Shown: positions 1 through 14,361 of the stretch, piece after piece
How positions within the stretch are numbered: the stretch's first letter is position 1
Layout: each line of letters starts with the position of its first letter
Source of the DNA: a virus
Lineage: Duplodnaviria; Heunggongvirae; Uroviricota; Caudoviricetes
Strand: one strand, 5' to 3'
Virus record (IMG/VR): IMGVR_UViG_2531839662_000017
Span: 1 to 14,361 of that record
Length of the DNA stretch: 14,361 nt
Made by a program: the position numbers and the translations under genes
Notes under the pieces: model-generated
Seen by the model: the letters and a program-made list of their open reading frames with translations, nothing else
Database searches by the model: none
Told to the model about the DNA's origin: nothing

Positions 1-696
1 TCAATCTACTTTTGCAACACTTTGCTTTGAAAATGCCGCCTTTTGTTTTGAACGCGTTCTCATTACAAACAATAAAGCCCCACTATCCAGTCGGTAAAAA
101 ATGTGTTTCATTGCAACCCAGTGACGAGTAAATGTTTTGGACCAGTTTTTAGTTGTCACTCCCGCCAGTAATGCCAGCTCCTGGTATTCATAACCTTCCC
201 CACCAAAAAGTTCTGCTTTTACTGCCTGCGCCGCCAGCCAGATTAATTTTTTCAGGCGTTCCTGCGTTTTCCCTGCAATTTTTCTGGTACCGGATTGAGT
301 ATTAAATTCGTTCCACGCCCACTGTGTTATCGCGATCTGATGCTCCCAGCAAATGTTTCCGCCGTAACACCACAACAACCAGGCTTTATGATGCTCTTCA
401 AGAGACAGCACAGCCCGCCGCCATGATGATGTCGAAAACTCAACCGGGCTGACCAGGGCAATTGATGAGCCTTTCGCCAGTGATTGTTTTCCCGGGATTG
501 GTGGATTATCCCGCGTTATCATTTTTCCAGTCACTTCATCGCGGTACCGGATTTTTTTACGCCTGTAACGCCCTGTATCAAACATGGCATTCTCCTGCCA
601 GGCTTCAAGCTGACCTTTTGTTGCCCCACTCAAATCAGCGGTGGCGATAATGAGCTGCTCGCGCACAAACTGTAAATACTGGTTATTCATGCGCAC
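1..696 (-). CDS. Late-gene antitermination protein Q-like (lambdoid)
   Basis: 231-aa ORF that ends the minus-strand operon directly after rusA, the standard position of Q. Its start region overlaps the rusA stop (ATGA, alternative start at 690), suggesting translational coupling. Stop codon at 1-3, so the gene is complete. Assignment rests on position and size, not a confirmed motif. Confidence 0.55.
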   Translation of the reverse strand: MRMNNQYLQFVREQLIIATADLSGATKGQLEAWQENAMFDTGRYRRKKIRYRDEVTGKMITRDNPPIPGKQSLAKGSSIALVSPVEFSTSSWRRAVLSLEEHHKAWLLWCYGGNICWEHQIAITQWAWNEFNTQSGTRKIAGKTQERLKKLIWLAAQAVKAELFGGEGYEYQELALLAGVTTKNWSKTFTRHWVAMKHIFYRLDSGALLFVMRTRSKQKAAFSKQSVAKVD

Positions 697-1052
697 TCCA
701 ATTCTGTGATTTTTATCCCCAGCCGCCCACCAGGAACGAGCTGACCGCGCACAATATTGATTTCATCAAGCTGCTCGTCGTCTATGAGTAGTCCGGCATG
801 CGTCAGCGCATCCAGTGGTGCTTTCAGGATATTGTCCAGGTCACGACGACGTTTATCCGGTGGCTCTGCAATCACCTTTATCGCCAGCCGTCCGGACAGG
901 TTTAATTTCAGCCGCTGCTGGCGAACAATTAGCGCCACATCACGGCGATAACGCTCACCGGCTTTTGATACAAAATATGTGCTGCCACGACGTCGCCAGT
1001 AGGTGTTCACCGTTGGCGGGTAAGGCAAAACAAATTCTATGCGTTCGGTCAT
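687..1052 (-). CDS. rusA: Holliday junction resolvase RusA
   Basis: 121-aa translation has RusA-family hallmarks (PDKRRRDLDNILKAPLDALTHAGLLIDDEQL; basic N-terminus YWRRRG) and matches RusA length. Sits in the nin region next to Q, as in DLP12-type prophages. Confidence 0.85.
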   Translation of the reverse strand: MTERIEFVLPYPPTVNTYWRRRGSTYFVSKAGERYRRDVALIVRQQRLKLNLSGRLAIKVIAEPPDKRRRDLDNILKAPLDALTHAGLLIDDEQLDEINIVRGQLVPGGRLGIKITELECA

Positions 1053-2108
1053 TTATGCTTTCCACTTCAGGACACCCGAATTTCTCGCGTGCATTAAAAA
1101 ACGAATCAGCAACAACAGCTGGCTGCCGTGTTTTTCTTCAAAATCTTTTACCCCGGTGTGCAGTTCGTTATGACATTTACGGCACAATGGAATAACAAAC
1201 AAATCGTCAGCCTTTGTTCCCATCCCTCCCAGTCCATGACCAATGATGTGATGCGGATCATCTGCCTGATTACCGCACGTCATGCATTTCTGCGTTTTTA
1301 CCCAGCGCGTGTATACAGGCATCTCTTCCCGTTGTGGTTTCTGGCGCTGGAGATACTGAGCCGGTGACTCCGGATCAACGGCAATGCTGACCACTGTCTT
1401 TTCCTGTGGCGGGTTTTGCTGGTGGGCGTGAGGCAGCGGCGCAAGATTTTTTGTGCGCTGCTTCAGTATGCTGGTGGCGGTCTGCTCTCCCGGCACGATG
1501 TCGCTCTCGCGGTATACTGAGCGAATTTTTTCCGCGCGCAATCCCAGCGAACGACGTAATACCGTCTCCGGTAGTGCGTCCGCTACGTTATTTATGGTTG
1601 CCCACCAAGATAATTCAGCCAGCGATAATTCCCGCTCCTGCGTGCCATTCATTGCATGGTGTATGACGTCAATCATCCATGCTGACAGGTTTTGATGAGC
1701 AAGTTGCTCGAGTGATTCGGATGTCTGGTCACGCAGCTGGTTGTCGCAGTGCCAGCACAACACCATTGCGCCGGTACCATAACGGTGAATAACGGTTTCG
1801 CTGTGATGATAATCGCCGTGTGGCCACTGGCAGGATTTAACATGACGCAGGAGCCAGTCAGACAGTGCACCAGCGCCGCCGGCAGCACGAATCACCCGCT
1901 CATCGCTGAAAAATGGCAGCAGAGATTTGTCTTCCGCCAGCGGCTGGCGAACGGCAGGAACGACCCCGGACGGCAGACCGCGCATGCTTTTTGGCTCCGG
2001 TTCAACCAGCACTCTGCCGTTATGGAATACCTGCATGGATTCACGACCTGGCTTAACGATAACCACCCCAAGTTCCGGCACCAGAACAGGTCGAAGTAAT
2101 ACCCGCAC
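1053..2108 (-). CDS. DUF968/YdfU-like phage protein with C-terminal Cys/His (HNH-like) motif
   Basis: 351-aa ORF tightly packed between the rem-like gene and rusA (1-nt and 0-nt gaps). C-terminus carries CMTCGN...HHIIGHG...CRKCHNELH. Size and position resemble YdfU of Qin-type prophages (recalled, not searched). The true start may be internal. Confidence 0.6.
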   Translation of the reverse strand: MRVLLRPVLVPELGVVIVKPGRESMQVFHNGRVLVEPEPKSMRGLPSGVVPAVRQPLAEDKSLLPFFSDERVIRAAGGAGALSDWLLRHVKSCQWPHGDYHHSETVIHRYGTGAMVLCWHCDNQLRDQTSESLEQLAHQNLSAWMIDVIHHAMNGTQERELSLAELSWWATINNVADALPETVLRRSLGLRAEKIRSVYRESDIVPGEQTATSILKQRTKNLAPLPHAHQQNPPQEKTVVSIAVDPESPAQYLQRQKPQREEMPVYTRWVKTQKCMTCGNQADDPHHIIGHGLGGMGTKADDLFVIPLCRKCHNELHTGVKDFEEKHGSQLLLLIRFLMHARNSGVLKWKA

Positions 2109-2109
2109 G

Positions 2110-2382
2110 TTACCTCCAGATGCGTTGCTGGAATGTGCGGGACGGACGCGGTGGGCGTTCGGAATAAGGGAGCCTGACAGAAATTATCCAGTGTCGGAAG
2201 TCAGGGCTGAGGTCTTTCTGAAAGTCGTACCCACGCCTGCGGTAGTTCTGAATCAGCCATTCGGCCTGTTCTTCAGTGCATGGGGCATGCTGGTACCAGT
2301 CATATTTGAATGTATGAGAACGCCGCCCGTGCCAGCTGGCAAGGTCGGTATCAGAATTGTGATGTTTGGTATTGTGCGCCAT
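2110..2382 (-). CDS. Small phage protein, rem-position ORF
   Basis: 90-aa ORF immediately upstream of the DUF968 gene in the same operon, in the position rem occupies in Qin-like prophages. No recognisable catalytic motif. Confidence 0.5.
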   Translation of the reverse strand: MAHNTKHHNSDTDLASWHGRRSHTFKYDWYQHAPCTEEQAEWLIQNYRRRGYDFQKDLSPDFRHWIISVRLPYSERPPRPSRTFQQRIWR

Positions 2383-2455
2383 CGGTTTTCTCTGCTGGCG
2401 CAGCAGGTGCCAGTTGTTCAGGCTAGCCTGTAGATTGTAAACCAGAATACGTAAA

Positions 2456-2480
2456 ACAAAAAACCCGCCGAAGCGGGTTA
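2456..2480 (-). terminator. Intrinsic terminator downstream of the HTH-ImmA gene
   Basis: Minus strand reads ACCCGC-TTCG-GCGGGT followed by TTTTTTGTTTT (6-bp GC stem, tetraloop, U-tract), starting 4 nt after the stop codon at 2484. Confidence 0.7.
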
Positions 2481-2483
2481 TGC

Positions 2484-3605
2484 CTAGTGAATTTTGCCTC
2501 TAAGAGTTCGGTAAGATTGTAGTGAAACAACATCACCACTTCCTGGCAGTTCATGAACCGCAGGAAGATCATCTCCTACTAACTCATAAAAAATGTCCAC
2601 TTCTATATCCATTTCATCAGCTATACGCTGTGGGTCGTATCCTAACTCTTCAAATAAAAACGATAAAGCCCGACGGAATAACTCAGGACGCTCATGAGGG
2701 ATTAGATAATCTTCTTTTTCATCAATAGCTTCCCCTTTCCGTTTCAACCCCATAAATGCAGTTCTGTACTGCTCATCAGTCAAAAGTCCTAATTGATGAG
2801 CCCTGTAAACAATGGCAGCCTTACTTACTTTCCATGTCAACTTAAATTGGCTTAGTCCCTGCCAATTTATCCTCCCCCCCACAGGTCTTGGAAAATATTT
2901 CGCCATCGACGTTCTGGGAAGCAACAGAGCAGAGGCAAAACGGTTTGCCTGGGATTCAGTTAATCTATCCCCAGTAGAAATTCCTTCATGAAGAATCAAA
3001 TGGGCAACCTCATGAGCAATATCAAAGCGTTGCCTACAAGGTGAATTTTTAGCTGTATTTCGAACAATAAAAGGCCTTCGTAGAGGAACAGACAGTGCAT
3101 CTACTTCATCCGAAACGGAGTCAAATGAAGTAACAAACGCCCCAAGTTTCTCGGCAAGGCGAGTCATATTTTCAATTGGGCCAAAGCCTAAGCCCCACTC
3201 AATACGACATTTTTCTGCCGCTCGCTCGATATCTTCTTGTGTATGGACACGAAATTCAGGAAATCGAACAGGTGACAAATTAAGGTTATCTTCAAATACA
3301 TCAATAAAACGACGATAAAACTCAGCCTTAGCGAGTGTTGATAGCTTCGTTGACATCCTTGTCGAGGCGCGTTTACGAAAATGTACAATCTCTTCATTAA
3401 CAGGAGAATGTTCCTGCCCTTCGAAAAAGGCGGGCTTCACGCGCAAAACCTCGGCTAATTTATTTATAAGCTCTGGGGATGGAGTAGCTGAACCAGACTC
3501 CAGTCGCTGTACATACTGGCGTGTTTTTTCAACCTTCTCAGCAACCTGCTCCAGAGATAGCTCGTGATACAGACGAGCAAGTCTTAAATTAGTACCGTTA
3601 AACAC
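2484..3605 (-). CDS. Fusion protein: N-terminal XRE-family HTH plus ImmA/IrrE-type (COG2856) zinc metallopeptidase
   Basis: 373 aa, GTG start preceded by GGGTGA. N-terminal Cro/C1-type HTH (LSLEQVAEKVEKTRQYVQRLESG). HEVAH (HExxH) zinc-binding motif at residues 198-202, encoded at 3000-3014. Second gene of a two-gene operon, 10-nt gap after the upstream ORF. Confidence 0.85.
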   Translation of the reverse strand: MFNGTNLRLARLYHELSLEQVAEKVEKTRQYVQRLESGSATPSPELINKLAEVLRVKPAFFEGQEHSPVNEEIVHFRKRASTRMSTKLSTLAKAEFYRRFIDVFEDNLNLSPVRFPEFRVHTQEDIERAAEKCRIEWGLGFGPIENMTRLAEKLGAFVTSFDSVSDEVDALSVPLRRPFIVRNTAKNSPCRQRFDIAHEVAHLILHEGISTGDRLTESQANRFASALLLPRTSMAKYFPRPVGGRINWQGLSQFKLTWKVSKAAIVYRAHQLGLLTDEQYRTAFMGLKRKGEAIDEKEDYLIPHERPELFRRALSFLFEELGYDPQRIADEMDIEVDIFYELVGDDLPAVHELPGSGDVVSLQSYRTLRGKIH

Positions 3606-3615
3606 ATTTCACCCA

Positions 3616-4209
3616 CTATTTGCTATTTTGTTTCTTTTCCTTCTCAGTCTTAGACGCACTGATAGGTTCTAGTTCGATAGGTACCGGTGCTGGAGGTACA
3701 TCATCGACAGAGTTCAGCATAACAACACGGTCCGCACCATATGTCCAAGTTGACACGATCTCACCAAACACGTTATAGCCATTAAAAATGACTCTACCAC
3801 CCTCGCCTTCAAATTCAGGCTTTTCAACCACAAAGCGATGCATAGTTGGAGTAGTCTCCTCTGACTCAAAGAGTCGATCAGCATCATTTCTTTTGAAAAA
3901 ACCGCGTTTCTTGGGGTTATCTGCGTCATCAGTAAAGAAACGAATAGGGACATTCCCAATTGAAAACGTAAGATCCATGCCAGGATTAAGTAGTCTTAAC
4001 CAGTCATATGTCTTTCGTACGCACATTTGTAGCAACGCCTGCCGCTGACGCCCAAATGTACAACCACCACGAGTGTAATTATCATCATAGGGCGATGACA
4101 ATAACTCATGAGTAATATCCTGTATCCTGAGCAACTCCTCAGCTATAATGGTTAAACGCTCCTCTGTTAACTCAGGAAAGAACTCCCAAGGGAATGGATG
4201 GTTCTGCAT
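3616..4209 (-). CDS. Hypothetical protein, upstream partner of the HTH-ImmA gene
   Basis: ORF track gives 3616..4257 from a TTG. The ATG at 4207-4209 (MQNHPFPWEF...) has a GGAG Shine-Dalgarno 8 nt upstream and is preferred, giving 197 aa. I recognise no family. Codon usage is lower-GC than the phage backbone. Confidence 0.65.
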   Translation of the reverse strand: MQNHPFPWEFFPELTEERLTIIAEELLRIQDITHELLSSPYDDNYTRGGCTFGRQRQALLQMCVRKTYDWLRLLNPGMDLTFSIGNVPIRFFTDDADNPKKRGFFKRNDADRLFESEETTPTMHRFVVEKPEFEGEGGRVIFNGYNVFGEIVSTWTYGADRVVMLNSVDDVPPAPVPIELEPISASKTEKEKKQNSK

Positions 4210-4258
4210 AGACACTTCTCCGCCTAATCCGTGCAAAAAACGACTTTTGTCAACCAAG

Positions 4259-4287
4259 ATATTGGTGCATATTCATAATTTTGTCAA
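4259..4287 (-). promoter_or_regulatory. Candidate sigma70 promoter of the two-gene cassette
   Basis: Minus-strand TTGACA (4287-4282), 17-nt spacer, CAATAT (4264-4259), about 45 nt upstream of the preferred ATG. The -10 is weak. Confidence 0.3.
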
Positions 4288-4290
4288 CCA

Positions 4291-4315
4291 ATAAAAAACC
4301 CGCCGAAGCGGGTTA
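4291..4315 (-). terminator. Intrinsic terminator downstream of the hok remnant (identical copy of the 2456-2480 hairpin)
   Basis: Same ACCCGC-TTCG-GCGGGT plus T-run on the minus strand. The 23 nt at 4293-4315 are identical to 2458-2480. Confidence 0.65.
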
Positions 4316-4382
4316 AGTGCGGGTGCGTTGAGGATGCCTGACACATCAGAGGTGGCGAGGGATTTCTCCCTCGCCTGGTCTC

Positions 4383-4502
4383 TTACTCCTCAGGTTCGTA
4401 AGCTGTGAAGACAGCGACCTCCGTCTGGCCGGTTCGGATTCGTACCTCGCAGAGGTCTTTCCTCGTTATCAGTACCGCAACAATTTCGTATTCATGATTC
4501 AT
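4383..4502 (-). pseudogene. hok-family toxin remnant, 5'-truncated (HokD/RelF-like C-terminus)
   Basis: Minus-strand translation ...IVAVLITRKDLCEVRIRTGQTEVAVFTAYEPEE* matches the conserved Hok C-terminal half. Only 39 codons are in frame from an ATG (MNHEYE...), an in-frame TGA lies just upstream, and the hydrophobic N-terminal helix is missing. Homology ends where the AT-rich DNA begins (about 4480). A perfect 9-bp hairpin at 4354-4375 lies in the 3' UTR. Confidence 0.55.
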
Positions 4503-4659
4503 TTCATCTAAAACAGTTCATAAACCTAAATAAATTCAAAAAATCACAACACAAATAAATATAAATTATCTCATCCTGAAGAACGATAGGATTATTTAGA
4601 ATTAATAACAATTAATGTAACAATAATTATCAATCCAGATTATTCAAATAAAATGTCAT

Positions 4660-5706
4660 TTACCATATGGAGTTGTGAATGAACTTTAATTCATTTTTTA
4701 TTTTGTTAACAGATAAATTCACGGATGTCCTAACTCTATTCACAGTCATTGCATCTCCTGGATTTAACAACTCTAATGGTTTAGACTTAGCACTTGACAT
4801 TCTGCCACTACCCAGAAAATCATCAAGAATCACAATGTGATTATTAGGATCATCTGTTGTAAAATTACTAATATTTTGTCGAATTACCTCTCTTACAGCT
4901 TCGATGTACATTTTTGTCTGTTGATTTGGTTTATTCCTTGCTCCTGCCACTGTTGACCATCCGCAATGGGTAATAACCACCATCTGAATTTTTGGTGTAT
5001 GGCCATCAGACGGCATTATCTTTCTAAATTCTGATGTTGGTTTAGTCAGAGTATCAATAAGTAATCTTAATGAATTAATCGATTGCTGATCTGTCCTCAC
5101 TGGAACTATTAAAGCATCTGTTGCATGCCAAGATAAATGCGTCGCTCCAGAGAAAAAAGGTGATGTATCAATTAACGCTTTTGTAGTACCAGTTTCAACC
5201 ATTTCTCTGGCTATTTCTTTCTTCAGAGAAAAAAGAATTGTATCAATAACAACCTGCTGAGTAGCCCCAGAAATTGTTCTGGCTTGAGCCAGAGCATTCG
5301 CCATTTGCGTAGGTAGAAGATAAAGTTGACTATCAGATTGAATAAAATAGTTATTCTTGCCCGCAAACCAAGCATTAGTTGATGATACTAGCTTTGCAGC
5401 ACGCGTTGCAAATCCAAGCCCTGGAACAAAATAAGGCATTAAGAGGTCATTTGCAGTTGTGCTAGACGAAGATGCATAATTATTGTCAAAAAAATATGAT
5501 AAATTTCCTTGCGGGCACGTATCCACGATTAATGCGTTATCCGCCAAATATGACAGATTAAAAGTTAAAGATGTCTTACCAATGCCTCCCCGTAAATTAC
5601 ATACTGTATATTTATCATATTTCGGCAAATTAAGACTTCTTACATTACCGTCAGCAACTTCGAATTGACGCTCTATCAGAGCATTAACATTTGATTCACT
5701 AGTCAT
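4660..5706 (-). CDS. ParA/MinD/BcsQ-like P-loop ATPase (deviant Walker A), AT-rich accessory gene
   Basis: 348 aa with VCNLRGGIGKTSLTFNLSY (Walker A of KGGxGK[ST] type, with R replacing the signature K as in BcsQ) followed by IVDTCPQGNL (ParA-type D-x-PQ-N). The gene and its flanks are markedly AT-rich compared with neighbouring phage genes. Confidence 0.7.
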   Translation of the reverse strand: MTSESNVNALIERQFEVADGNVRSLNLPKYDKYTVCNLRGGIGKTSLTFNLSYLADNALIVDTCPQGNLSYFFDNNYASSSSTTANDLLMPYFVPGLGFATRAAKLVSSTNAWFAGKNNYFIQSDSQLYLLPTQMANALAQARTISGATQQVVIDTILFSLKKEIAREMVETGTTKALIDTSPFFSGATHLSWHATDALIVPVRTDQQSINSLRLLIDTLTKPTSEFRKIMPSDGHTPKIQMVVITHCGWSTVAGARNKPNQQTKMYIEAVREVIRQNISNFTTDDPNNHIVILDDFLGSGRMSSAKSKPLELLNPGDAMTVNRVRTSVNLSVNKIKNELKFIHNSIW

Positions 5707-5736
5707 ATCGCCACCATTAGTTTTACACTTTTATTG

Positions 5737-5765
5737 ATGATATGGAAAACTAACCTAGTTGTCAA
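5737..5765 (-). promoter_or_regulatory. Near-consensus sigma70 promoter for the ParA-like gene
   Basis: Minus-strand TTGACA (5765-5760), 17-nt spacer, TATCAT (5742-5737), about 30 nt upstream of the ATG at 5706. Confidence 0.5.
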
Positions 5766-5913
5766 CAATGGATTAAAAAACAAACACACAAGCGTTTATC
5801 AAAAGCACCTTGATTGGTGATACTACCGTGTCTTTCAGCCAAACAGTTCAGTATGTAAAGCGAATCCAACATCAATTAAGAACGTTTTCAGCGCTCCCCC
5901 AGTTGTCTAGATG

Positions 5914-6091
5914 TCAAACTTCATGCGCTCTCCTGTCGAAATAAACGTACTGATTAATCATGCCCAAGGACATTTCGCGTTTTACAGCGATATCACGGCG
6001 GGGAACTCCACACTGATGAAGCTTCCGCACTAGCTCAATATCGCTTTGCGGATGTTTTTTTGATTGGTTATAACCCCCCCCCTCTTAACAT
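5914..6091 (-). pseudogene. Small HTH ORF (weakly NinH-like), split by a frameshift at a G9/C9 homopolymer
   Basis: Minus strand reads ATG-MLRGGG into the G9 run and hits a stop. Removing one G gives a 58-aa ORF MLRGGGYNQSKKHPQSDIELVRKLHQCGVPRRDIAVKREMSLGMINQYVYFDRRAHEV* with an HTH-like core. The NinH resemblance is weak and from memory. Confidence 0.35.
6074..6082. repeat. C9 (minus-strand G9) homopolymer tract
   Basis: Nine consecutive C residues counted directly in the sequence, lying inside the frameshifted small ORF. Confidence 0.9.
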
Positions 6092-6192
6092 CCTATTGAT
6101 ACCCAGTTCCTGCGCTTTCGCTCTGACAGCATAACTAGAACGATCAATCAACCCTCCTATGCTTTCGACCGTCAACGCGTCTACACAATTGC

Positions 6193-6648
6193 CTAAGCGC
6201 CATGATTTCCCTCATGCACAACCTGTTCACCGAATGTCTCTCGAAAACCATTCTGGTAAAATGCCAGTACACGCTGCATAGCTTCGCTCTTCCGGCACTC
6301 GCGACAGATTATATTCAGGCGCCTATCGTAGCGACGCATTTCTCCGTCTGGTAATGACCAGATAAGGTCCGGATCAACCACAGATGGTTTCTTCAGATTT
6401 GCCCTTGAGAGTTTTTTGCGGGCGTTTTGCCAGTCCTTACGAGCCTGTTCAGACGGGAATAACCCGTAGCCAGAGTTATATACATCGCCACTGGCAACCA
6501 GCTCTCTGGCGATAACACTCATCAGATATCTTGTCGCACCAGTTTTCGCTTCCAGTTGCCGTAACGTCTCGCGCCCGCTCTGGCGTACCAGCTCAACAAC
6601 CTGCCCTTTAATTTTTTCTCGCTCTTCCTGTGTAAATACTTTTGCCAT
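6193..6648 (-). CDS. Hypothetical nin-region phage protein
   Basis: The ORF track extends to 6714, but the ATG at 6646-6648 (MAKVFTQEE...) has a GGGAGG Shine-Dalgarno and removes the overlap with the upstream gene, giving 151 aa. No family recognised. Confidence 0.55.
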   Translation of the reverse strand: MAKVFTQEEREKIKGQVVELVRQSGRETLRQLEAKTGATRYLMSVIARELVASGDVYNSGYGLFPSEQARKDWQNARKKLSRANLKKPSVVDPDLIWSLPDGEMRRYDRRLNIICRECRKSEAMQRVLAFYQNGFRETFGEQVVHEGNHGA

Positions 6649-6664
6649 AAGCCCTCCCCAGGAA

Positions 6665-7435
6665 TCACTTTTCCGGCACAATACGACTGGAGGAATCGAC
6701 AATCTGTCGGACAATATCCCGGTGCTTGTTCAGCTCCCGCAGCGCGGCGCAAACTCGCTCCCACTTCTGGGCATGACTTTTCGCCCGGCGCAGTTCGCGG
6801 TTTGCCATATGCAGCGATGGTAAAATCAGGCCATCAGCTCGTGTTTCAGTGAACGATGGCAGCGACTGCACAATGTCCGCCACAGTTTCTGTTTTAATAT
6901 CTTCCTGTGTTGCAGCTTCCTGTACTGGTAACGCAACACTTGCTGGCTGAGGAAAGGCTTTACCATCAGTTTCCGCTACCAATGCAGCTTTCGGCTCTGC
7001 TGGTAAATTATCGCCCGGTATGCAGTAGCGAAATTTACCGTTCTGGTTTACGCGTGCCAGCCGCCCCGTTGCGGTTACTACCGCCAGCGTGGAAGCAACC
7101 TTGCGAGTGCTGACACCGAACTTACCCGCCAGTTCCTCACACGTTTTAGCTCCCTCCTGACCGATAAACTCAATCATCATGTCAGCGGTAACTTTTCGTT
7201 CGACCTCCCTGGTTAGCACATCCTGTACTTCAGATTGTGCTGGCTGCTCTTCGGCTACCCCTGATTCACCTTCGCCAGCCACACGCCAGGTGTATACGCT
7301 TTTATCAACGAAGCCAGCCTTTTTCAGTTCCCACAGCTCGTTCAGTACTTCTTCACGACTGATATCAAGTCGCGCAGCCAGCTCTACCGACGTGGCTTTT
7401 CCCATCGCTTTCAGTGCGTCAAAAACGGTCTCCAT
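6665..7435 (-). CDS. Hypothetical phage protein with N-terminal winged-helix-like region
   Basis: The ORF track start at 7486 overlaps the DnaC-like gene. The ATG at 7433-7435 ([13 protein letters not shown]...) has a GGAGG Shine-Dalgarno 8 nt upstream, giving 256 aa. The N-terminus has a helix-turn-helix-like pattern ([28 protein letters not shown]). Confidence 0.6.
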
Positions 7436-7457
7436 TAAAATTTCCTCCCGGTAAAAA

Positions 7458-8204
7458 TTACTTCTCAATACCTGGCTGACCAACATTCGGGCGCCAGCTC
7501 TCCCAGTTAAAATTCACCCAGCGCCCGCCGTTCATGGTCATGCGATCCATAATCCGCTCGCCGAGCAATGTTTTCATGGCCTCATAGTTCAGGTTTGTCA
7601 GCATCCCCACGCTGCGCATCGACGCTGTCCGGCGATCAACAATCTGGTGCAGTACCACCTGCTCGTTTTTCGTCTCGCGCTGAATACCAATTTCATCAAG
7701 AACCAGCAGATCCACTTCGCACAGTTCCCGCAAAAATTTTTCGCCTGATTGCCCGTCGTCATAGCTGGCGTGTAGAGCACTCATGACATCAGCCACGGTA
7801 ACCACAATCACTGTCTGGCCATCTTTCAGCAGGCGATTCCCGATAGCCGCCGCTAAGTGGTTTTTCCCGGTACCAGGTTTTCCGCTGAATGCGAAATTTG
7901 TGCATCCGGTCATCAGTTCATCGGCGATGGATTTCGCCTGGCTCAACGCGTATCGCTGGCCGTCATTCTGCACCTGGTAATTCGCAAACGAGCACTTGCG
8001 GTGCAACGGCTGGATGCCGGAGCGATTCAGAATTTTTTCCACCCGCAACTGACGATTCTGGCGGTTGATCTCCTCGCAACGCTTCTGGCCTTCTGCAAGT
8101 TGCCACTCGCGCCACTCGTCCACTGTTCGGTATGGCGCGGTTACATGCTGCGGAGCCAGCTTACGGATGCGTTCAAGAACACCGCCTGTCGCAATATTTT
8201 TCAT
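7458..8204 (-). CDS. DnaC-like replicative helicase loader (IstB-type AAA+ ATPase)
   Basis: 248 aa with Walker [16 protein letters not shown] and Walker B LLVLDEIG. Follows the O-like gene by 6 nt with a GGGGG Shine-Dalgarno. Confidence 0.85.
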
Positions 8205-8210
8205 GCTTCG

Positions 8211-9158
8211 TTACCCCCTGAATCCCGGCGGAATTTCGGTGTCCGGTTCAGAAATGTGATTCACGCAACGCTGTACAGGCGAACGCCCCAGACGAATAAC
8301 CAGCTCATCCCATTTTTCGCGAAGCTTTGACGGGCTCATGACGTTTTTTACCCAGAATGGATCCCGCTGTACCCGACCAAACATTTCGCAAATTTGTCTG
8401 TGAGTTCTGCCATCCAGCATCCGCATTGTGCGCACATCATTGGCCCATGCAGTCCAGTTGGGTTCTTTCGGTCGCATGATTTCGCCATCATCGCTGGCAG
8501 CCTGCTCGTAAAGACTCACGATTCGTCCCCAGATCCACTGCGCACACGCTAAATCCTCCTGGCTGCCCCACTGGCGTTTTTTCGCACTGAACACAACCGC
8601 GTCAGGGTGTCGGGTTAAAAAATCCTGTTCAGCCGTCTGCGGGTCCGGTTGCGAAGCGTCCGGACGAAAAGATCTTTTATCTGACGGATCAGGTTTTAAT
8701 ACTGACGGATCGGGGCCAACCATCGCCCCCCTATCCGACTGTTTTTTATCAATGGTTGATCCATCAAAATTTGAGGGGTCAACCGTTGAGGGGGCAATAT
8801 TTGACGGGTCATTTTTTGCCTGGCTAATTTTTCTTTTCGGTTTATATGCCTCACGCGCCGCCGCTGCTGCTGCTTCGAGTTTTTCCACATTAAGGCGGTA
8901 GATATTGCTTTCATTACGCCCACCGACCTTACGTTCCTCCTTCTTCAGCCAGCCGTTCTTTTCCAGTTCCGCTATCGCCGCTTTAACCGTTGATTCACTC
9001 TTTGCTCCAATCTGACGACGAATGGTCTCCACTGCAGGCCATGACACACCTTCGTCATTGCTGTAATCTGCAAGGCGAGCCATTACTGCCACCCTGGATA
9101 AGATCATGCCGGTGAAGGCACACCCTTCCCAGACAAGACCATGAAGCTTGCTGCTCAT
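8211..9158 (-). CDS. Replication initiator, lambda O-like (origin-binding protein)
   Basis: 315-aa ORF just upstream of the DnaC-like gene. The DNA encoding its central low-complexity linker (DPSN/DPSV/DPSD repeats) contains iterons, as in lambda O. Confidence 0.7.
   Translation of the reverse strand: MSSKLHGLVWEGCAFTGMILSRVAVMARLADYSNDEGVSWPAVETIRRQIGAKSESTVKAAIAELEKNGWLKKEERKVGGRNESNIYRLNVEKLEAAAAAAREAYKPKRKISQAKNDPSNIAPSTVDPSNFDGSTIDKKQSDRGAMVGPDPSVLKPDPSDKRSFRPDASQPDPQTAEQDFLTRHPDAVVFSAKKRQWGSQEDLACAQWIWGRIVSLYEQAASDDGEIMRPKEPNWTAWANDVRTMRMLDGRTHRQICEMFGRVQRDPFWVKNVMSPSKLREKWDELVIRLGRSPVQRCVNHISEPDTEIPPGFRG
8681..8848. repeat. Putative phage replication origin: iterons plus AT-rich segment inside the O-like gene
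   Basis: Five copies of a 10-bp motif yTGAsGGrTC at 8681, 8702, 8771, 8786 and 8801 (the last three exactly 15 bp apart), clustered GATC sites, and an adjacent T-rich stretch at 8811-8848. Confidence 0.5.
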
Positions 9159-9181
9159 AAAAAACTCCGAACACCGTGCTT

Positions 9182-9607
9182 TTAGTGCATCACCACGGCA
9201 TTTCCCGCCGGACCACCACGATTCATCTGATTGAAACCAGCGATCGCCACTGCGACAAAATCATCAGCGTCTCTCACCAGTCGTTCCCGCATCTCCACCA
9301 GCTCCCGAAAATAGGCTGAACTGTGGCTGCGCATTCGGGCCACCAGCAGAGGTGGCATTGCCTTTTCGATCGCCGGTAACAGCGCCTGAATTTTTTTAAC
9401 CGCATCAGGGGTGTCTTTCTCCACCCAGCGGAAAATTTTCTGAGTATTGCGAGCCAGGGCTTCCGGATGCCTGTCGTCATATAGCTCTGGGAACGTCATA
9501 CCAAGCTCAAAATAAGCCCGGGTTATTTCAGCTGCTGGAACTTTTTCGCCATCAGGACGCGCCCAGGCATTCATCGCCATGCGGATGTGTTCATGCTTGA
9601 TTTTCAT
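9182..9607 (-). CDS. ydaT: YdaT-like protein (CII-position regulator)
   Basis: 141 aa beginning MKIKHEHI. Overlaps the upstream Cro-like gene by ATGA (9604-9607) and sits between cro-like and O-like genes, the lambda cII position. The name is from recalled Rac/CP-933P annotation. Confidence 0.55.
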   Translation of the reverse strand: MKIKHEHIRMAMNAWARPDGEKVPAAEITRAYFELGMTFPELYDDRHPEALARNTQKIFRWVEKDTPDAVKKIQALLPAIEKAMPPLLVARMRSHSSAYFRELVEMRERLVRDADDFVAVAIAGFNQMNRGGPAGNAVVMH

Positions 9608-9906
9608 GAATCAACTCCATCAGATAAGCATGCACTACAATCACCTTCAGCATGAACTACATGTGTTTGCCCCAAACGAATGCCGCTCGCATACTCAGGC
9701 CAAATAAGCTCCCAATCATGGGGTCGTAGCTCCGCCCTACTTACTTGGCCTTCCGTCGCAGATTCGATCATAAGGGCGCGGGTTGGAGATATAGCTGCTC
9801 GTCCAGACGCCATTTGCGATAAGTAAGATGGCGATACACCAAGTCTGGCCGCGAATTTCTTAGCATCACCAACCCTCAATGATTTAATAAACTCTTTTAA
9901 TGTCAT
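9604..9906 (-). CDS. ydaS: Cro-like HTH regulator (YdaS-like)
   Basis: 100 aa with HTH KKFAARLGVSPSYLSQMASGRAAISPTRALMIES. Divergent from the repressor gene across an operator-bearing intergenic region. Confidence 0.65.
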   Translation of the reverse strand: MTLKEFIKSLRVGDAKKFAARLGVSPSYLSQMASGRAAISPTRALMIESATEGQVSRAELRPHDWELIWPEYASGIRLGQTHVVHAEGDCSACLSDGVDS

Positions 9907-9916
9907 ACCTTCCTCG

Positions 9917-9997
9917 GTTTAGTGTTTTTTTGCGAGTTTAGTGTTTAATAAACCATTAAGTCAAGTATTTGCTTGTTTAGTGATTACTAAAGATAAT
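9917..9997. promoter_or_regulatory. Right operator/promoter region: three direct repeats GTTTAGTG(T/A)T plus divergent promoters
   Basis: Repeats at 9917-9926, 9936-9945 and 9975-9984. Candidate repressor promoter TTGCTT (9969-9974), 17 nt, GATAAT (9992-9997), placing the transcript start near the ATG at 10004 (leaderless, like lambda PRM). Candidate cro-like promoter on the minus strand: TTGACT (9964-9959) with -10 TAAACT. Confidence 0.45.
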
Positions 9998-10003
9998 TAC
10001 CAC

Positions 10004-10375
10004 ATGCAAAAAAAAGAAATTCGCCGTTTACGTCTCAAGGAGTGGTTTAAAGATAAAACTCTGCCACCCAAAGAGAAGAGCTACCTATCTCAACTAATGA
10101 GTGGGAGGGCCTCGTTTGGAGAAAAGGCTGCCAGAAGAATAGAGCAAACATACGGGATGCCGGAAGGGTATCTGGATGCGGAATACGCAGAACAACCGGA
10201 AGTTTCTCCACCACATGCAGGGTTAACGTCTAATCAACTGGAATTATTGCAGATTTTTTCAGCCTTCCCTGAGGATGAGCAACGCCAGATAATCAGCGAG
10301 TTAAAGCAGAAAAAAGAATCAATGGAAGATCTCATAGCGAGATGGATTGCGGCGCAAAAATGCCGCCGCGCCTGA
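10004..10375 (+). CDS. paaR: CI-like prophage repressor (PaaR-like HTH regulator), no S24 peptidase domain
   Basis: ATG at 10004 preferred over the GTG at 9941, which would read through the operator repeats. 123 aa with HTH KEKSYLSQLMSGRASFGEKAARRIEQ. First gene of a three-gene operon with the ParE-family toxin-antitoxin pair. Confidence 0.65.
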   Translation: MQKKEIRRLRLKEWFKDKTLPPKEKSYLSQLMSGRASFGEKAARRIEQTYGMPEGYLDAEYAEQPEVSPPHAGLTSNQLELLQIFSAFPEDEQRQIISELKQKKESMEDLIARWIAAQKCRRA

Positions 10376-10395
10376 GTTATAAAACCGGAGGAAAC

Positions 10396-10587
10396 ATGAA
10401 TAGAGCCCTTTCACCAATGGTTTCTGAATTTGAAACCATTGAACAAGAAAACAGTTACAACGAATGGCTGCGTGCGAAAGTAGCAACGAGCCTTGCAGAT
10501 CCGCGCCCAGCAATTCCCCATGACGAAGTTGAGCGCAGAATGGCAGAACGCTTTGCTAAAATGCGCAAGGAACGGAGCAAGCAGTAA
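10396..10587 (+). CDS. paaA: Small antitoxin partnered with ParE toxin (PaaA-like)
   Basis: 63 aa (MNRALSPMVSEFETIEQ...) with a GGAGG Shine-Dalgarno. Stop at 10585-10587 lies 1 nt before the toxin ATG. I recall this as the PaaA antitoxin of the paaR-paaA-parE systems in O157:H7 prophages. Confidence 0.65.
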   Translation: MNRALSPMVSEFETIEQENSYNEWLRAKVATSLADPRPAIPHDEVERRMAERFAKMRKERSKQ

Positions 10588-10588
10588 A

Positions 10589-10867
10589 ATGTTACCCGTG
10601 TTATGGCTTGAAAGCGCAGATACCGACCTAGATGATATAACTAGCTATATTGCTCGTTTCGACATAGATGCGGCTGAACGCTTATGGCAGCGATTAAGGG
10701 GTTGTGTGCTGCCGTTATCCGAACATCCGTATTTATACCCACCAAGCGACAGAGTACCTGGCTTGCGTGAGATTGTAGCCCACCCTAACTATATAATTCT
10801 ATACCGCGTAACAACATCAAGCGTTGAAGTAGTAAACGTGATCCACGCAAGACGCCAGTTTCCCTAA
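10589..10867 (+). CDS. parE: ParE/RelE-family toxin
   Basis: 92 aa with a ParE-like C-terminus (HPNYIILYRV...VEVVNVIHARRQFP), translationally coupled to the antitoxin. Confidence 0.8.
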   Translation: MLPVLWLESADTDLDDITSYIARFDIDAAERLWQRLRGCVLPLSEHPYLYPPSDRVPGLREIVAHPNYIILYRVTTSSVEVVNVIHARRQFP

Positions 10868-10928
10868 CTTTCACTACCAATAGAAACATAACAACCGCAA
10901 CGACTTTATCAAAAGCGTTGTGTTTGTT

Positions 10929-10970
10929 ACGCCCCGTGGTTTAGTTTTTACTTGACTTAAGTTTAATGTT
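10929..10970 (+). promoter_or_regulatory. pL-like promoter with two operator-like repeats
   Basis: GTTTAGTTTT (10929-10938) and GTTTAATGTT (10951-10960) each differ by one base from the right-operator repeat. They flank TTGACT (10942-10947), about 16 nt, TAAACT (10964-10969), a near copy of the cro-like promoter. Confidence 0.4.
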
Positions 10971-11077
10971 TATTAAACTAAAAATACCAACCCACCCCGC
11001 CCCACAGAATGCAGGGCAATACTTCGAGTTACCAGGCAGTGGTCAGGGGTTAAGTAGCCAGCCCGAGGCGTAAGAAC

Positions 11078-12943
11078 ATGACGGCAGGGTTCAACTTTAA
11101 TAACTATGCAGCAGGTTTTTGTTCCGCTACCCCGGCGTTAAGGGGAAATGAGGTCAGCATGGATACTATCGATCTTGGCAACAACGAATCTCTGGTATGC
11201 GGCGTGTTCCCCAACCAGGACGGTACGTTCACCGCGATGACATATACCAAAAGCAAAACGTTTAAAACCGAATCTGGCGCGCGTTGCTGGTTAGCCAGAA
11301 ACAATGAAGTTATCGACAAAGATCGCGAAGACTGGAAGCGCATTTCCGCATCAATGCGCAAACAACCCGATGCCGTCCGCTACGACCGTCAGACTATTTT
11401 TGGCCTTGTCCGTGAGCGTCCGATCGACATTCACAAAGATCCCGTAGCACTGAACAAATACATCACTGAATACCTGGCGACAAAGGGCGTGTTTGAGGAT
11501 GAAGAAACAGACCAGAACGCTGCTGATATTCTCCAGCCGTCAGCAGCACAAACTGATGCAGTGGAAACTGAAGTATCTGATACCCAAAAAAATGAAAGCA
11601 CGCTGGAAACTGAACCATCTGTAGAGCGTGAGGGGCCGTTCTACTTCCTTTTCACCGATAAGGATGGCGAAAAATATGGTCGTGCAAACAAACTTTCTGG
11701 TCTGAATAAGGCGCTGGCTGCAGGGGCTACTGAAATCACGAAAGAAGAATATTTTGCCCGCAAAAACGGTACATACTCAGGCTCACAACAAAATACTGGT
11801 GCATCTGACACGACCGCACAACCAGAGCCGGTAAAAGTTACCGCTGACGAAGTAAACAAAATTATGCAGGCAGCCAATATCAGCCAGCCTGACGCTAATG
11901 AACTGCTTGCTGCCTCTCGCGGAGAATTTGTTGCAGGGATTAGCGACCCGAATGATCCGAAATGGGTGAAGGGGATTGAAACCCGCGATTCTGTGAACCA
12001 GAACCAGCAAGAAACGGAACAGAACGACCAGAAAGCGGAACAAAACAGCCCAAATGCGTTACAAAACGAGCCGGAAACAAAACAACCTGAGCCAGTAGCG
12101 CAACAGGAAGCGGAAAAAGTCTGCACCGCCTGCGGTCAGAGCGGTGGCGGCAACTGCCCTGATTGTGGCGCGGTGATGGGCGACGCAACATACCAGGAAA
12201 CATTCGATGAAGAGAATCAGGTTGAAGTTCAGGAAAACGATCCGGAGAAAATGGAAGGCGCTGAACATCCACACAAGGAGAATGCTGGCAGCGCTCAGGA
12301 CCACGCCAGCGATAATGAAACTGGCGAGGCGGCAGATCACTCAATTAAGATGAACGGTCATCACGAAATCACATCCACCAGCAGGACGTGTGACCATCTA
12401 ATGATCGACCTCGAAACCATGGGAAAAAATCCTGATGCCCCGGTTATCTCAATAGGTGCAATATTTTTCGATCCGCAAACCGGAGATATGGGACCGGAAT
12501 TTAGTAAGACTATCGATCTGGAAACTGCTGGCGGAGTCATTGATCGGAACACCATTAAATGGTGGCTGAAGCAATCACGCGAAGCGCAATCTGCCATTAT
12601 GACCGATGAAATCCCGTTAGATGATGCACTGTTACAATTGCGAGAATTTATCGACGAAAACTCCGGTGAATTTTTTGTTCAGGTCTGGGGAAATGGAGCC
12701 AACTTCGACAACACGATTTTGCGCCGTTCATACGAACGGCAGGGGATCCCCTGCCCGTGGCGTTACTACAACGATCGCGATGTACGCACAATCGTTGAGC
12801 TGGGGAAAGCCATAGACTTCGATGCCAGAACGGCTATTCCATTCGAAGGTGAGCGCCATAATGCACTTGATGACGCTCGTTACCAGGCAAAATACGTTTC
12901 AGCTATCTGGCAAAAACTGATCCCGAGTCAGGCTGATTTTTAA
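11078..12943 (+). CDS. Multidomain protein with C-terminal DnaQ-like (DEDDh) 3'-5' exonuclease domain
   Basis: 621 aa. C-terminal third carries Exo motifs MIDLETMG (D-x-E), [11 protein letters not shown] and HNALDDARY. Preceded by a Cys4 zinc-ribbon ([16 protein letters not shown]) and an acidic Q/E-rich low-complexity linker. The start could instead be Met28 at 11159. Confidence 0.75.
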
Positions 12944-13004
12944 TGTTCAACCGTCGCCAGTTGTCGTTGGTATTCTGCAACTGGCGCGTTCCGGAGTGAT
13001 AGCC

Positions 13005-13274
13005 ATGAGCGAACAGTACCTGATAACGCTCGATGAGTGGAAGCCAAAACGGTTCAGTCTCCCAATAACAAACACTACCCTGGTGAAATACGGAAAACTA
13101 GGATACATCGTTCCAAGACCACAAAAAATTCGTGGGCGTTGGCTGATAGATCGCCGAGCAGTATTTGTTGGACCTGGTGAAACAGGAATTGCGCCGGAAA
13201 TTCATACTGGCGATGATGATGCACTGAAGGAGATTTTAACTCATGTCACCGAGGCCACGAAAAAACAGCACTGA
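13005..13274 (+). CDS. xis: Excisionase (Xis-like)
   Basis: ATG at 13005 with GGAG 8 nt upstream (ORF track starts at a GTG at 12996). 89 aa, small and basic. Overlaps the integrase start by 32 nt, as lambda xis/int do. Confidence 0.6.
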   Translation: MSEQYLITLDEWKPKRFSLPITNTTLVKYGKLGYIVPRPQKIRGRWLIDRRAVFVGPGETGIAPEIHTGDDDALKEILTHVTEATKKQH

Positions 13275-14361
13275 CGTAGCCGGACTTTACGAAAAATTTG
13301 ATCGCAGAACTGGCAGAGTTTACTACCAGTATAAAAACCCTGTGACTGGAAAATTTCACGGGCTCGGAACAGACAAAGGTAAGGCAGAAAAAATCGCTTC
13401 CACAGCCAATCAGCGAATAGCTGCAGCAGAGGCTGAATATTTCATGCGCAAAATTGATGAAAGTCCGTCAGCAACAACGCGTCGGGGTATCAGATTAAAG
13501 GCATGGGTTGATCGATATCTGAAAATACAGGACACGCGACTGAAAAATGGAGATATTGCAGCTACAACTCACAAAGAAAAAGCCAGAATGGCTGCATACC
13601 TGGTTTCCCGTCTGGGAAACCACCCATTGAAAGAACTGGAAGTAAGAGACTTTGCATTAATACTGGATGAGTGGCTGGATAAAGACATGGTCAGCACAGC
13701 GAGAGTAAATCGTGGATTATGGGTTGATATTTATAAAGAAGCACAGCATGCAGGGGAAGTTCCTCCTGGATGGAATCCTCCGGAGGCCACCCGTAAACCG
13801 ATCCCTAAAGTAACCAGAGCCAGACTCACCCTGGAAGACTGGCAAAAAATTTACAACGCAACGCCAGAAAAACACTTTATCCGTAACGCAATGCTTCTTG
13901 CGATTGTTACTGGTCAGCGCCGTGATGACATTTACCACATGCGTTTTTCAGATGTGTGGAACGAACATTTGCATATCACCCAGGGAAAAACCGGAATGCG
14001 TCTGGCGTTACCGCTTACACTACGCTGTGATGCCATTGGGATAACGTTAAAAGAAGTTATTGATGGGTGCCGAGACAGAATATTAAGTCCATATCTAATC
14101 CATAGTCGGCACCAGAAACAACCGAAGCCGATGAGTAAAGACAACCTGAGCGACTACTTTGCCAAAGCACGGGATCTGGCTGGGATAATTCCACCAGCAG
14201 GAAAAACTCCGCCAACATTTCATGAACAACGCTCTCTATCAGAACGGCTGTACCGTGCACAGGGTATCGATACAAAAACATTACTAGGACATAAAGTCCA
14301 GGCAACCACCGATCGCTATAACGATACTCGAGGTCAGGAATGGGTTAAGTTGGTTATTTGA
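13243..14361 (+). CDS. int: Tyrosine site-specific recombinase (phage integrase)
   Basis: 372 aa with an arm-binding type N-terminus and a C-terminal catalytic region (...LLGHKVQATTDRYNDTRG..., candidate Tyr nucleophile in DRY). Stop codon is the last three bases of the window, so the attachment site probably lies just beyond. Confidence 0.9.
   Translation: MSPRPRKNSTDVAGLYEKFDRRTGRVYYQYKNPVTGKFHGLGTDKGKAEKIASTANQRIAAAEAEYFMRKIDESPSATTRRGIRLKAWVDRYLKIQDTRLKNGDIAATTHKEKARMAAYLVSRLGNHPLKELEVRDFALILDEWLDKDMVSTARVNRGLWVDIYKEAQHAGEVPPGWNPPEATRKPIPKVTRARLTLEDWQKIYNATPEKHFIRNAMLLAIVTGQRRDDIYHMRFSDVWNEHLHITQGKTGMRLALPLTLRCDAIGITLKEVIDGCRDRILSPYLIHSRHQKQPKPMSKDNLSDYFAKARDLAGIIPPAGKTPPTFHEQRSLSERLYRAQGIDTKTLLGHKVQATTDRYNDTRGQEWVKLVI

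Follow-up and report, generated by a model that had tools for sequence, protein, structure and literature searches.

A ParA-like ATPase encoded by a mobile single-gene cassette in a defective Escherichia coli prophage: an inverted repeat on its promoter and a candidate role in excluding competing elements

ParA-type ATPases are understood as partner-driven positioning motors, and a solitary gene of this type within an integrated prophage raises the question of what it does there. One such gene encodes a 348-amino acid (aa) protein on the minus strand of a 14,361-nucleotide stretch of viral DNA (Caudoviricetes; IMG/VR record IMGVR_UViG_2531839662_000017, positions 1 to 14,361), which we refer to as the window. 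The coding sequence occupies positions 4660..5706 (minus strand), as established by open reading frame (ORF) calling and translation, and lies within an AT-rich island. Here, we report that this gene and its promoter form a conserved, horizontally moved unit, that the encoded ATPase carries two invariant substitutions in its active site, and that an inverted repeat brackets the -10 box of the promoter in the window and recurs at most examined loci of its clade. We tentatively propose that this cassette excludes competing genetic elements.

The transferable unit and its ATPase

An initial annotation of the window had described an AT-rich island carrying a single gene under a near-perfect σ70 promoter, and each of these elements holds up. 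The G+C content is 34.4% across positions 4503-5765 and 48.8% in the remainder of the window; it is 36.1% over the whole insert delimited below, and the GC3 of the ParA-like gene is 26%. The σ70-type promoter (minus strand, 5737..5765) comprises a -35 hexamer, TTGACA (5765-5760), a 17-nt spacer and a -10 hexamer, TATCAT (5742-5737). It agrees with the consensus at 11 of 12 positions and is the best-scoring site of the region, in which promoter-like sites as a whole are not above chance (6 found, 6.4 expected). A Shine-Dalgarno-like GGTGG, read from the sequence, lies on the same strand at 5711..5715, 4 nt upstream of the ATG.

The extent of the unit is defined by comparison with copies of the gene in Enterobacter. 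DNA homology between the E. coli and Enterobacter copies begins at position 5765, with the -35 hexamer, and ends at 4659, one base past the stop codon. The proteins are 96% identical and the DNA 83.6% identical (dS 1.4, dN/dS 0.02), and the Enterobacter copies retain TTGACA and a TATnnT -10 element despite this saturated synonymous divergence. Purifying selection is extreme, which excludes decay or an annotation artefact as explanations of the ORF. The conserved and moved unit is therefore the promoter plus the ORF, as the earlier proposal of an independently expressed gene would predict. A downstream 35-aa ORF (4504-4611) was rejected as a conserved small ORF because homology ends at the stop codon of the ParA-like gene. 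All Enterobacter loci with the 96%-identical homologue (L051-L056) have a 143-aa ORF without a Pfam match approximately 500 nt downstream of it (for example, L051 8546-8977); since this ORF is not in the E. coli window, it is placed outside the cassette.

The horizontal acquisition that had been suspected from composition is supported by sharp borders, rarity and a compositional difference that recurs elsewhere. Similarity to related prophages ends at position 4477, inside hokD, and restarts where the DUF977 gene ends, at 6086 or 6253; the insert was delimited as 4478-6085 because the similarity breaks at 4477/4478 and 6085/6086. Only 14 of 5426 complete E. coli genomes carry this insert, in an identical context in all 14, and in almost every host examined the ParA-like gene is richer in AT than the flanking DNA (for example, a G+C fraction of 0.35 versus 0.64).

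The distribution of the family is cross-phylum and patchy. An indexed search returned 706 protein clusters, and the best 120 of these are all approximately 346 aa long, 62-96% identical and drawn from very diverse Proteobacteria. An exhaustive profile-free search of 1.84 billion representatives gave 179 matches, with ordinary ParAs matching weakly and via the P-loop region, and the family is thus compact and distinct. In a cross-phylum scan that used one genome per species, identity to the window protein was 55-57% in a large Lachnospiraceae/Clostridia clade, 51-52% in Thermoguttaceae (Planctomycetes) and 33-39% in members from Alphaproteobacteria and Bacilli. A sister clade, typified by gp55 of Ralstonia phage RsoM1USA, comprises 1391 clusters of 345-aa proteins that are 71-76% identical across several phyla, and the RsoM1USA gene is the sole family gene in the phage GenBank collection. 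The main and sister clades together exceed 2000 protein clusters at 90% identity. The family has no name in Pfam, NCBIfam or PADLOC, and its members are annotated in genomes as 'ParA family protein', 'chromosome partitioning protein' or 'BcsQ'.

Profile searches place the protein only broadly. Pfam returned AAA_31 alone (E 8e-10), and NCBIfam gave weak N-terminal BcsQ/ParA matches far under their cut-offs; TIGR03371 (BcsQ) scored 31 bits for the whole protein against a cut-off of 158, and the BcsQ models of both databases match the N-terminal ~40 residues. PHROGs assigned it to phrog_164, 'ParA-like partition protein'. An AlphaFold2 (AF2) model (pLDDT 87.6) is that of a single ParA/McdA fold with a P-loop and Walker B motif. 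Structural comparison of this model gave 24.3 for McdA (244 residues aligned), the nearest solved structure, 23.7 for a ParA (8ray) and 21.8 for V. cholerae ParA2, with lower values for MinD (19), FleN (17.9) and BcsQ (17.4). Foldseek was concordant, and comparison with a viral structure library was uninformative.

The protein does possess the ~100 residues beyond a typical ParA that the initial annotation had noted, but they are not C-terminal: in the model they form an N-terminal helix (residues 4-18) and insertions between the PQ motif and Walker B and at residues ~250-260. The C-terminal 100 aa, singled out for profile and structure searches, contain no distinct domain, and a separate C-terminal domain was rejected on the basis of the model and structural comparison in favor of one domain with distributed insertions. 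A fusion of ParA to a phosphoribosyltransferase (PRTase; motif IVILDDFLGSG) was also rejected, since this segment forms the C-terminal ParA core in the model and alignments. Weak local matches to PRTase-CE, PRTase_III-A and ShosT (E 1e-4 to 0.05) cover residues 262-311, an ordinary C-terminal ParA segment, and are therefore considered spurious; a PRTase fold with a phosphoribosyl pyrophosphate-binding loop, as in the retron type III-A PRTase, ShosT and PRTase-CE, was not found in the protein.

The nucleotide-binding motifs reported initially are present as Walker A (NLRGGIGKTS, residues 37-46), the D-x-PQ-N motif (VDTCPQGN, residues 61-68) and, additionally, Walker B (IDTSP, with D180). Within these motifs Arg39 stands where the deviant Walker A normally has its signature Lys, and Cys64 aligns with the catalytic Asp of Soj (D44) and McdA (D38). 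Cys64 is invariant, Arg39 is invariant in 35 sequences and nearly so across the extended family, and both features persist in relatives down to 24% identity; G43, K44, D62 and D180 are also invariant. The position aligned to Cys64 is the one changed from Asp to Ala in the PDB entry 6nop, labelled McdA(D38A), and in 2bek, which we take to be the ATP-trapped dimer of Soj D44A. Because the P-loop is intact while the catalytic Asp and the signature Lys are replaced, ATP is probably bound but hydrolysed slowly. McdA also has a Walker A without the signature Lys (SGGQGKT); unlike the window protein, it keeps its catalytic Asp, is ~260 aa long and works with McdB on carboxysomes rather than as a mobile cassette. 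The most similar active-site signature is that of E. coli BcsQ (RGGxG...DxCP), which is reported to be a stable ATP-bound dimer and a scaffold rather than a motor. BcsQ is ~250 aa and is encoded in the bcs operon with BcsR, whereas the window protein is longer, and there were no bcs genes in any examined locus.

An inverted repeat on the core promoter

The promoter of the ParA-like gene is overlaid by an inverted repeat with arms of 11-12 nt that bracket the -10 box. The left arm, GTTAGTTTTCCA (minus strand, 5743..5754), occupies the promoter spacer up to the -10 hexamer; the right arm, TGTAAAACTAAT (minus strand, 5716..5727), follows after 15 nt and is itself separated from the downstream ATG by 9 nt. 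The 15-nt gap opens with the -10 hexamer, or a -10-like one, and has an A-tract at positions 10-14.

Of the 61 main-clade loci examined, 41 have this arrangement, and these come from Firmicutes, Planctomycetes, Desulfovibrionaceae and Enterobacteria. The arms are separated by exactly 15 bp in 36 of the 41; in three others the spacing is 36-37 bp, longer by approximately two helical turns. When up to one mismatch is allowed, 56% of the 61 loci contain a 12-nt inverted repeat, compared with 4.4% of shuffles. The outer bases, TTAG/CTAA, are invariant, and the inner bases change symmetrically between lineages: TTTTACA/TGTAAAA in Firmicutes, TTTTCCA/TGGAAAA in enterics and TTCCGC/GCGGAA in Desulfovibrionaceae. 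Six of the 12 arm positions change on both sides, and the covariation score was reached by none of 500 shuffles, although the arms were chosen by complementarity and these counts are consequently biased toward pairing. The register of the repeat relative to the promoter differs among lineages. It immediately follows TTGACA-17-TATAAT in Firmicutes, places its left arm within the spacer in enterics and Desulfovibrio, and has one arm on either side of the entire promoter in Kangiellaceae and Burkholderia; it overlaps core promoter elements in all three registers. An integron attC-like site was rejected from reading of the sequence, as the arms misfit RYYYAAC/GTTRRRY cores and there is no conserved 3' element.

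The repeats of the sister clade are organized differently. The initial annotation had seen no centromere-like repeat array; the window indeed contains a single palindrome, but the conserved palindromic operator had been missed, and arrays with a 19-nt period occur in the sister clade. In its prophage members, including RsoM1USA, four to seven direct repeats of CGACCTGCA precede the gene. These arrays, (C)GACCTGCA, lie at L029 7808-7902, L032 7788-7893, L046 7779-7881 and L048 (RsoM1USA) 5878-5925; they overlap a TTGACG -35 box and have no ParB-like gene in their vicinity. The direct-repeat array of the sister clade looks like a centromere and the palindrome on the -10 box of the window clade like an operator. 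A related ACCTGC repeat is found upstream of the Firmicutes members L147 and L148, and alphaproteobacterial members have CGACAnnnTGTCG palindromes in the equivalent upstream place.

The inverted repeat travels with the ParA-like gene, which is the sole gene common to the loci. The simplest inference is that the protein would bind its upstream repeats and repress its own promoter. The type Ia partition proteins P1 ParA and F SopA repress their own promoters via an inverted repeat overlapping the promoter. Like the window protein, these proteins and V. cholerae ParA2 have a ParA fold with insertions, and they rank near the top of the structural matches. They are, however, ~390-400 aa long and read their operators with an N-terminal winged helix-turn-helix (HTH), whereas in the window protein residues 1-31, with one helix (4-18), are all that precede the first core strand in the model; no HTH family was found in the Pfam search, and the ~100-aa N-terminal winged HTH is absent. 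Type Ia ParAs also have the signature Lys and catalytic Asp and are always paired with ParB and parS. The window protein has the fold, P-loop and Walker B of classical ParABS ATPases but lacks three of their features, namely the signature Lys, the catalytic Asp before PQ and an adjacent partner gene.

Genomic setting of the cassette and its relatives

The window matches the locus of the enterotoxigenic E. coli (ETEC) strain UMNF18 at 100% identity, and the lambdoid prophage context assigned initially is evident from int, xis, exo, a cro-like gene, O, P, DUF1627, DUF977, DUF968, RusA and Q. The prophage is defective, since a tRNA-Ile gene and then a CP4-type island follow 3' of Q instead of lysis and structural genes. 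At 9182-9607 and 11078-12943, its YdaT-family gene is annotated as frameshifted, and the exonuclease region as two partial pseudogenes in which a DUF1391 fragment is fused to a 3'-5' exoribonuclease-domain gene. Beside the immunity region, the RefSeq annotation of the identical UMNF18 locus shows a RelB-like antitoxin and RelE/ParE-family toxin pair at 10395-10866 (plus strand).

The left border of the insert is marked by a truncated hokD (minus strand, 4383..4502), which keeps its C-terminal part ending in TRKDLCEVRIRTGQTEVAVFTAYEPEE and has lost the N-terminal membrane part at the junction; hokD is intact at the corresponding position in thousands of E. coli genomes. The 3' flank of the insert (4478..4659), with ~26% G+C, replaces the 5' part of hokD and was not found in other prophages or homologue loci. 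The 5' flank (5766..6085) is by sequence comparison a mosaic filler. Within it, 5914-6068 shows ~85% identity with a portion of a 'DNA-binding protein' gene; about 110 non-mobilizable plasmids from E. coli, Salmonella and Shigella, ~90-97 kb in size where listed, carry this gene. At 5914-6175 (minus strand), two short HTH-like ORFs of 38 and 35 aa, split by a C run at ~6068-6077, look like the remnant of another phage gene. A terminator-like hairpin lies in the 5' flank at 5898-5878 (minus strand), and the first intrinsic-terminator-like hairpin downstream of the ParA-like gene on the same strand is at 4297..4314.

The position between DUF977 and hokD is an accessory slot, as the initial annotation had suspected, and other prophages carry different cargo there, in one case a string of small ORFs. 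In E. coli ETEC6333 (L049 4863-6820) this slot holds genes for a 376-aa ATP-binding protein, a STAS-like domain protein and a 172-aa hypothetical protein, a set that could represent a further accessory or defence module. In the window, the hok remnant is followed directly by a complete RosmerTA anti-phage system (minus strand, 2484-4257; G+C 0.40-0.44), comprising RmrA (2484-3605; 373 aa, HTH_3 and Peptidase_M78; PADLOC-DB v2 match E 4e-201) and RmrT (3616-4209/4257; E 7e-93). RosmerTA is a second insert, because related prophages run from hokD straight to a 92-aa protein and DUF968.

No ParB-type partner accompanies the gene, in agreement with the initial annotation. There is none in the window; neither ParB nor ribbon-helix-helix proteins appear among the families listed for the 123 nearest-neighbor ORFs of 66 genome loci, a census restricted to nearest neighbors and without a background set; and inspection of the Burkholderia, Desulfovibrio, Yersinia, Enterobacter and conjugative-element loci revealed no ParB or other centromere-binding partner. 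The homologues are thus solitary. The 66 loci have no conserved neighbor gene, the largest cluster being an ABC ATPase in five of them.

Members of the family occupy accessory slots of prophages, integrative and conjugative elements (ICEs) and plasmids. The gene adjoins a PaaA2-ParE toxin-antitoxin pair in Burkholderia and lies in an islet with HicA in Desulfovibrio. In Enterobacter it is the first gene of an ICE adjoining proA or lies beside CbtA/CbeA, and in a conjugative element it is found between a coupling protein/LPD7 gene and a relaxase. A Yersinia plasmid carries it beside a resolvase and an insertion sequence, 5 kb from the plasmid's own ParA-ParB, and Aeromonas plasmids of 5.9 kb and 29 kb carry it besides a ParA+ParG pair. 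Beyond the resolvase gene of Yersinia contigs, in regions ~1-2.5 kb upstream of the homologue (L007 5345-6812, L010 5369-6124), one plasmid has a gene with a weak HEPN_RiboL-PSP match and an unannotated 224-aa gene, and another has a gene with a weak phosphoribosyltransferase match; these may be defence or toxin cargo in a shared variable region. Sister-clade genes lie beside cI-type (HTH+S24) repressors in 14 prophage contigs and beside attP in RsoM1USA. Remote relatives (35-38% identity) in the Firmicutes loci L129, L135 and L136 are upstream of a putative terminase large subunit gene, as judged from sequence.

Candidate functions of the cassette

We consider that the window protein is not a partition ATPase: there is no ParB in the examined loci, and plasmids that carry the gene have ParA+ParG or ParA+ParB. 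The reading that we favor, although we hold it at slightly less than even confidence, is that the cassette of promoter, palindromic operator and one ORF would be kept by a mobile element or its host against competitors, most probably in the form of phage defence and next as interference with plasmids. The setting of the gene is one of conflict, with a slot that varies between related prophages and toxin-antitoxin neighbors in Burkholderia, Enterobacter and Desulfovibrio, and the defence reading is strengthened by the adjacent RosmerTA system and by the precedent of GiPD474.

GiPD474 (STM474_RS13505) is a solitary 361-aa ParA/MinD/Soj-like protein whose gene adjoins the Gifsy-1 repressor gene in S. 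Typhimurium 4/74; it is a Gifsy-1/Gifsy-3 prophage defence protein that restricts phage FO1 and, when expressed from a plasmid, lowers the plating of T4 and Alf5 by ~5 logs through an unexplained mechanism (PMC12724215). We recovered its sequence via a published knockout primer. Like the window protein, GiPD474 is a solitary AAA_31 protein of similar size, is accessory cargo of a lambdoid prophage without ParB, and has DxCPQ with Cys at the catalytic-Asp position and a long insertion separating the PQ motif from Walker B. Profile-profile comparison matched the two with a probability of 99.6% (E 3e-24, 303 columns), whereas a control with an ordinary ParA gave E 1e-17 over 173 columns. In contrast to the window gene, GiPD474 is directly downstream of cI in the immunity region, and its reported range is limited to Enterobacteriaceae (PMC12724215), compared with several phyla for the window family. 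The authors' membership cut-off was at least 70% identity, which the window protein does not reach. By sequence, GiPD474 is a remote relative and a functional precedent from a different family; the defence phenotype was demonstrated for GiPD474 and would extend to the window protein by analogy.

A possible course of events would begin with binding of ATP via the intact P-loop (G43, K44, D62, D180), an anatomy observed throughout the family, and formation of the usual nucleotide-sandwich dimer. Cys64 and Arg39, both directly visible in the alignments, would slow hydrolysis and produce a long-lived switch rather than a ParB-driven oscillator. The dimer would then occupy the two 12-bp arms that bracket the -10 box and repress its own promoter, setting a low constitutive level in the lysogen that is independent of the prophage lytic programme. 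Finally, by analogy and from the context of the gene, entry of foreign DNA would allow the ATP-bound protein to target either the invader DNA or a conserved factor of replication or segregation, thereby blocking propagation.

Several observations weigh against exclusion as the function. We know of no phenotype for any member of the family, and PADLOC-DB v2 gave no significant match for the protein, the best being local (E 1e-4). The dN/dS of 0.02 and the 55-65% identity across phyla indicate a conservation far above that expected of defence genes. A gene of 36% G+C could be silenced by H-NS in E. coli. No DNA-reading domain is recognizable in the protein. The link to GiPD474 is also distant: BLASTP identity is 24% over 210 aa (E 3e-11), GiPD474 keeps the signature Lys (NNKGGVGKT), and there is no palindromic operator or repeat array upstream of it. 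Nearest neighbors of the homologues are mostly housekeeping genes, with few IS1, PemK, type IV restriction, methyltransferase and Cas6 genes among them. Furthermore, with some members at an ICE edge or by a relaxase, a role in the element's own biology is equally possible.

Such a role could take the form of element maintenance, which we regard as unlikely. In this model an ATP-locked dimer would bind the nucleoid non-specifically and its own palindrome or array specifically, and excised or episomal copies would ride the chromosome in a partition process free of ParB and of hydrolysis. The gene is always preceded by specific repeats, a layout shared with type Ib par loci, and in the sister clade these repeats form direct-repeat arrays; members reside at the Enterobacter ICE edge by proA, on conjugative elements and on small plasmids; the closest structures are a DNA-binding ParA and McdA; and a static tether fits the missing catalytic Asp. 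However, most chromosomal copies (Lachnospiraceae, Burkholderia, Desulfovibrio) sit between housekeeping genes with no recognizable element, the window prophage is integrated and defective, carrier plasmids already own a ParA+ParG or ParA+ParB system, and the single palindrome on the -10 box in the window clade resembles an operator rather than a centromere array.

Comparably doubtful is an anti-plasmid incompatibility factor, an orphan ParA that would poison the ParAB systems of incoming plasmids or phage-plasmids. The precedent is ParI (PP3700) of P. putida KT2440, an orphan ParA of a genomic island that destabilizes IncP-7 plasmids in a Walker-A-dependent manner (PMC9178275; PMC8544851). 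Like the window gene, parI is an orphan ParA-family gene on horizontally acquired DNA. It acts in mobile-element conflict, as is proposed for the window gene, and a solitary, mobile element-borne protein with a ParA fold could heterodimerize with plasmid ParAs or compete with them for nucleoid and ParB. The N-terminal 155 aa of ParI, which we recovered from L149 via published primers, nonetheless contain an Xre-type HTH and then, near residue 83, the Walker A sequence SLKGGVGKS, and they lack DxCPQ; ParI was rejected as a family member on this architecture. With Arg39 and Cys64, the window protein departs from what mixed dimers of classical ParAs require at these positions, and the gene itself resides on plasmids that rely on ParA+ParG or ParA+ParB.

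There is a similarly small probability that the gene is a lysogenic-conversion regulator that alters host replication, division or expression, either by acting on a universal host factor, such as DnaA (the target of Soj) or FtsZ (the target of MipZ), or by serving as an ATP-dependent transcription factor. The extreme cross-phylum conservation would suit a protein that contacts DNA or a universal host component, the operator implies sequence-specific DNA binding, and the neighbors are housekeeping genes in most genomes. Yet a second copy of the inverted repeat was not found in the window, no host target has been identified, and the patchiness of the gene, exemplified by its rarity in E. coli, together with its AT-richness over its flanks, better fits an accessory conflict gene.

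Least probable is that the inverted repeat is an RNA element, a 5'-untranslated region hairpin affecting translation or stability of a gene without transcriptional self-regulation: the co-varying arms keep their complementarity and in Firmicutes would both be transcribed, but the left arm lies inside the promoter spacer in the window, Enterobacter and Desulfovibrio and is untranscribed in Kangiellaceae and Burkholderia, the invariant TTAG/CTAA and fixed gap (15 bp, or 15 plus ~21 bp) are typical of protein recognition, single-strand folding is no better than that of shuffles (z = 0.17), and an Rfam search was empty, so that an RNA hairpin or known RNA was rejected.

The main and sister clades might constitute a new class of single-gene conflict system, a suggestion that we consider possible but rather less likely than not to hold as a whole. 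Its members would be hydrolysis-impaired, ATP-locked ParA-like dimers that read a specific palindrome to set their own level and, through the same DNA-binding or dimer surface, immobilize or silence invader DNA or seize a universal replication or segregation factor. Action on DNA or a universal factor would account for proteins that are nearly identical among Firmicutes, Proteobacteria and Planctomycetes.

Solitary ParA-like proteins of mobile elements are known already, and one remote relative is a proven defence protein; what is unusual here is the co-travelling operator, the combination of Arg39 and Cys64, and the cross-phylum conservation. The precision of the operator, with its 12-bp arms and 15-bp gap on the -10 box, makes the regulation directly testable. 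If the proposal is true, a solitary, self-repressed and probably hydrolysis-poor ParA that moves across phyla as a one-gene cassette would broaden the roles of this fold, and the conflict class would represent a ParB-less ParA acting as an immune switch rather than a motor. It would also provide a mechanistic handle on GiPD474 and add to the defence repertoire a very widespread single gene that is now filed as 'chromosome partitioning protein' or 'BcsQ'.

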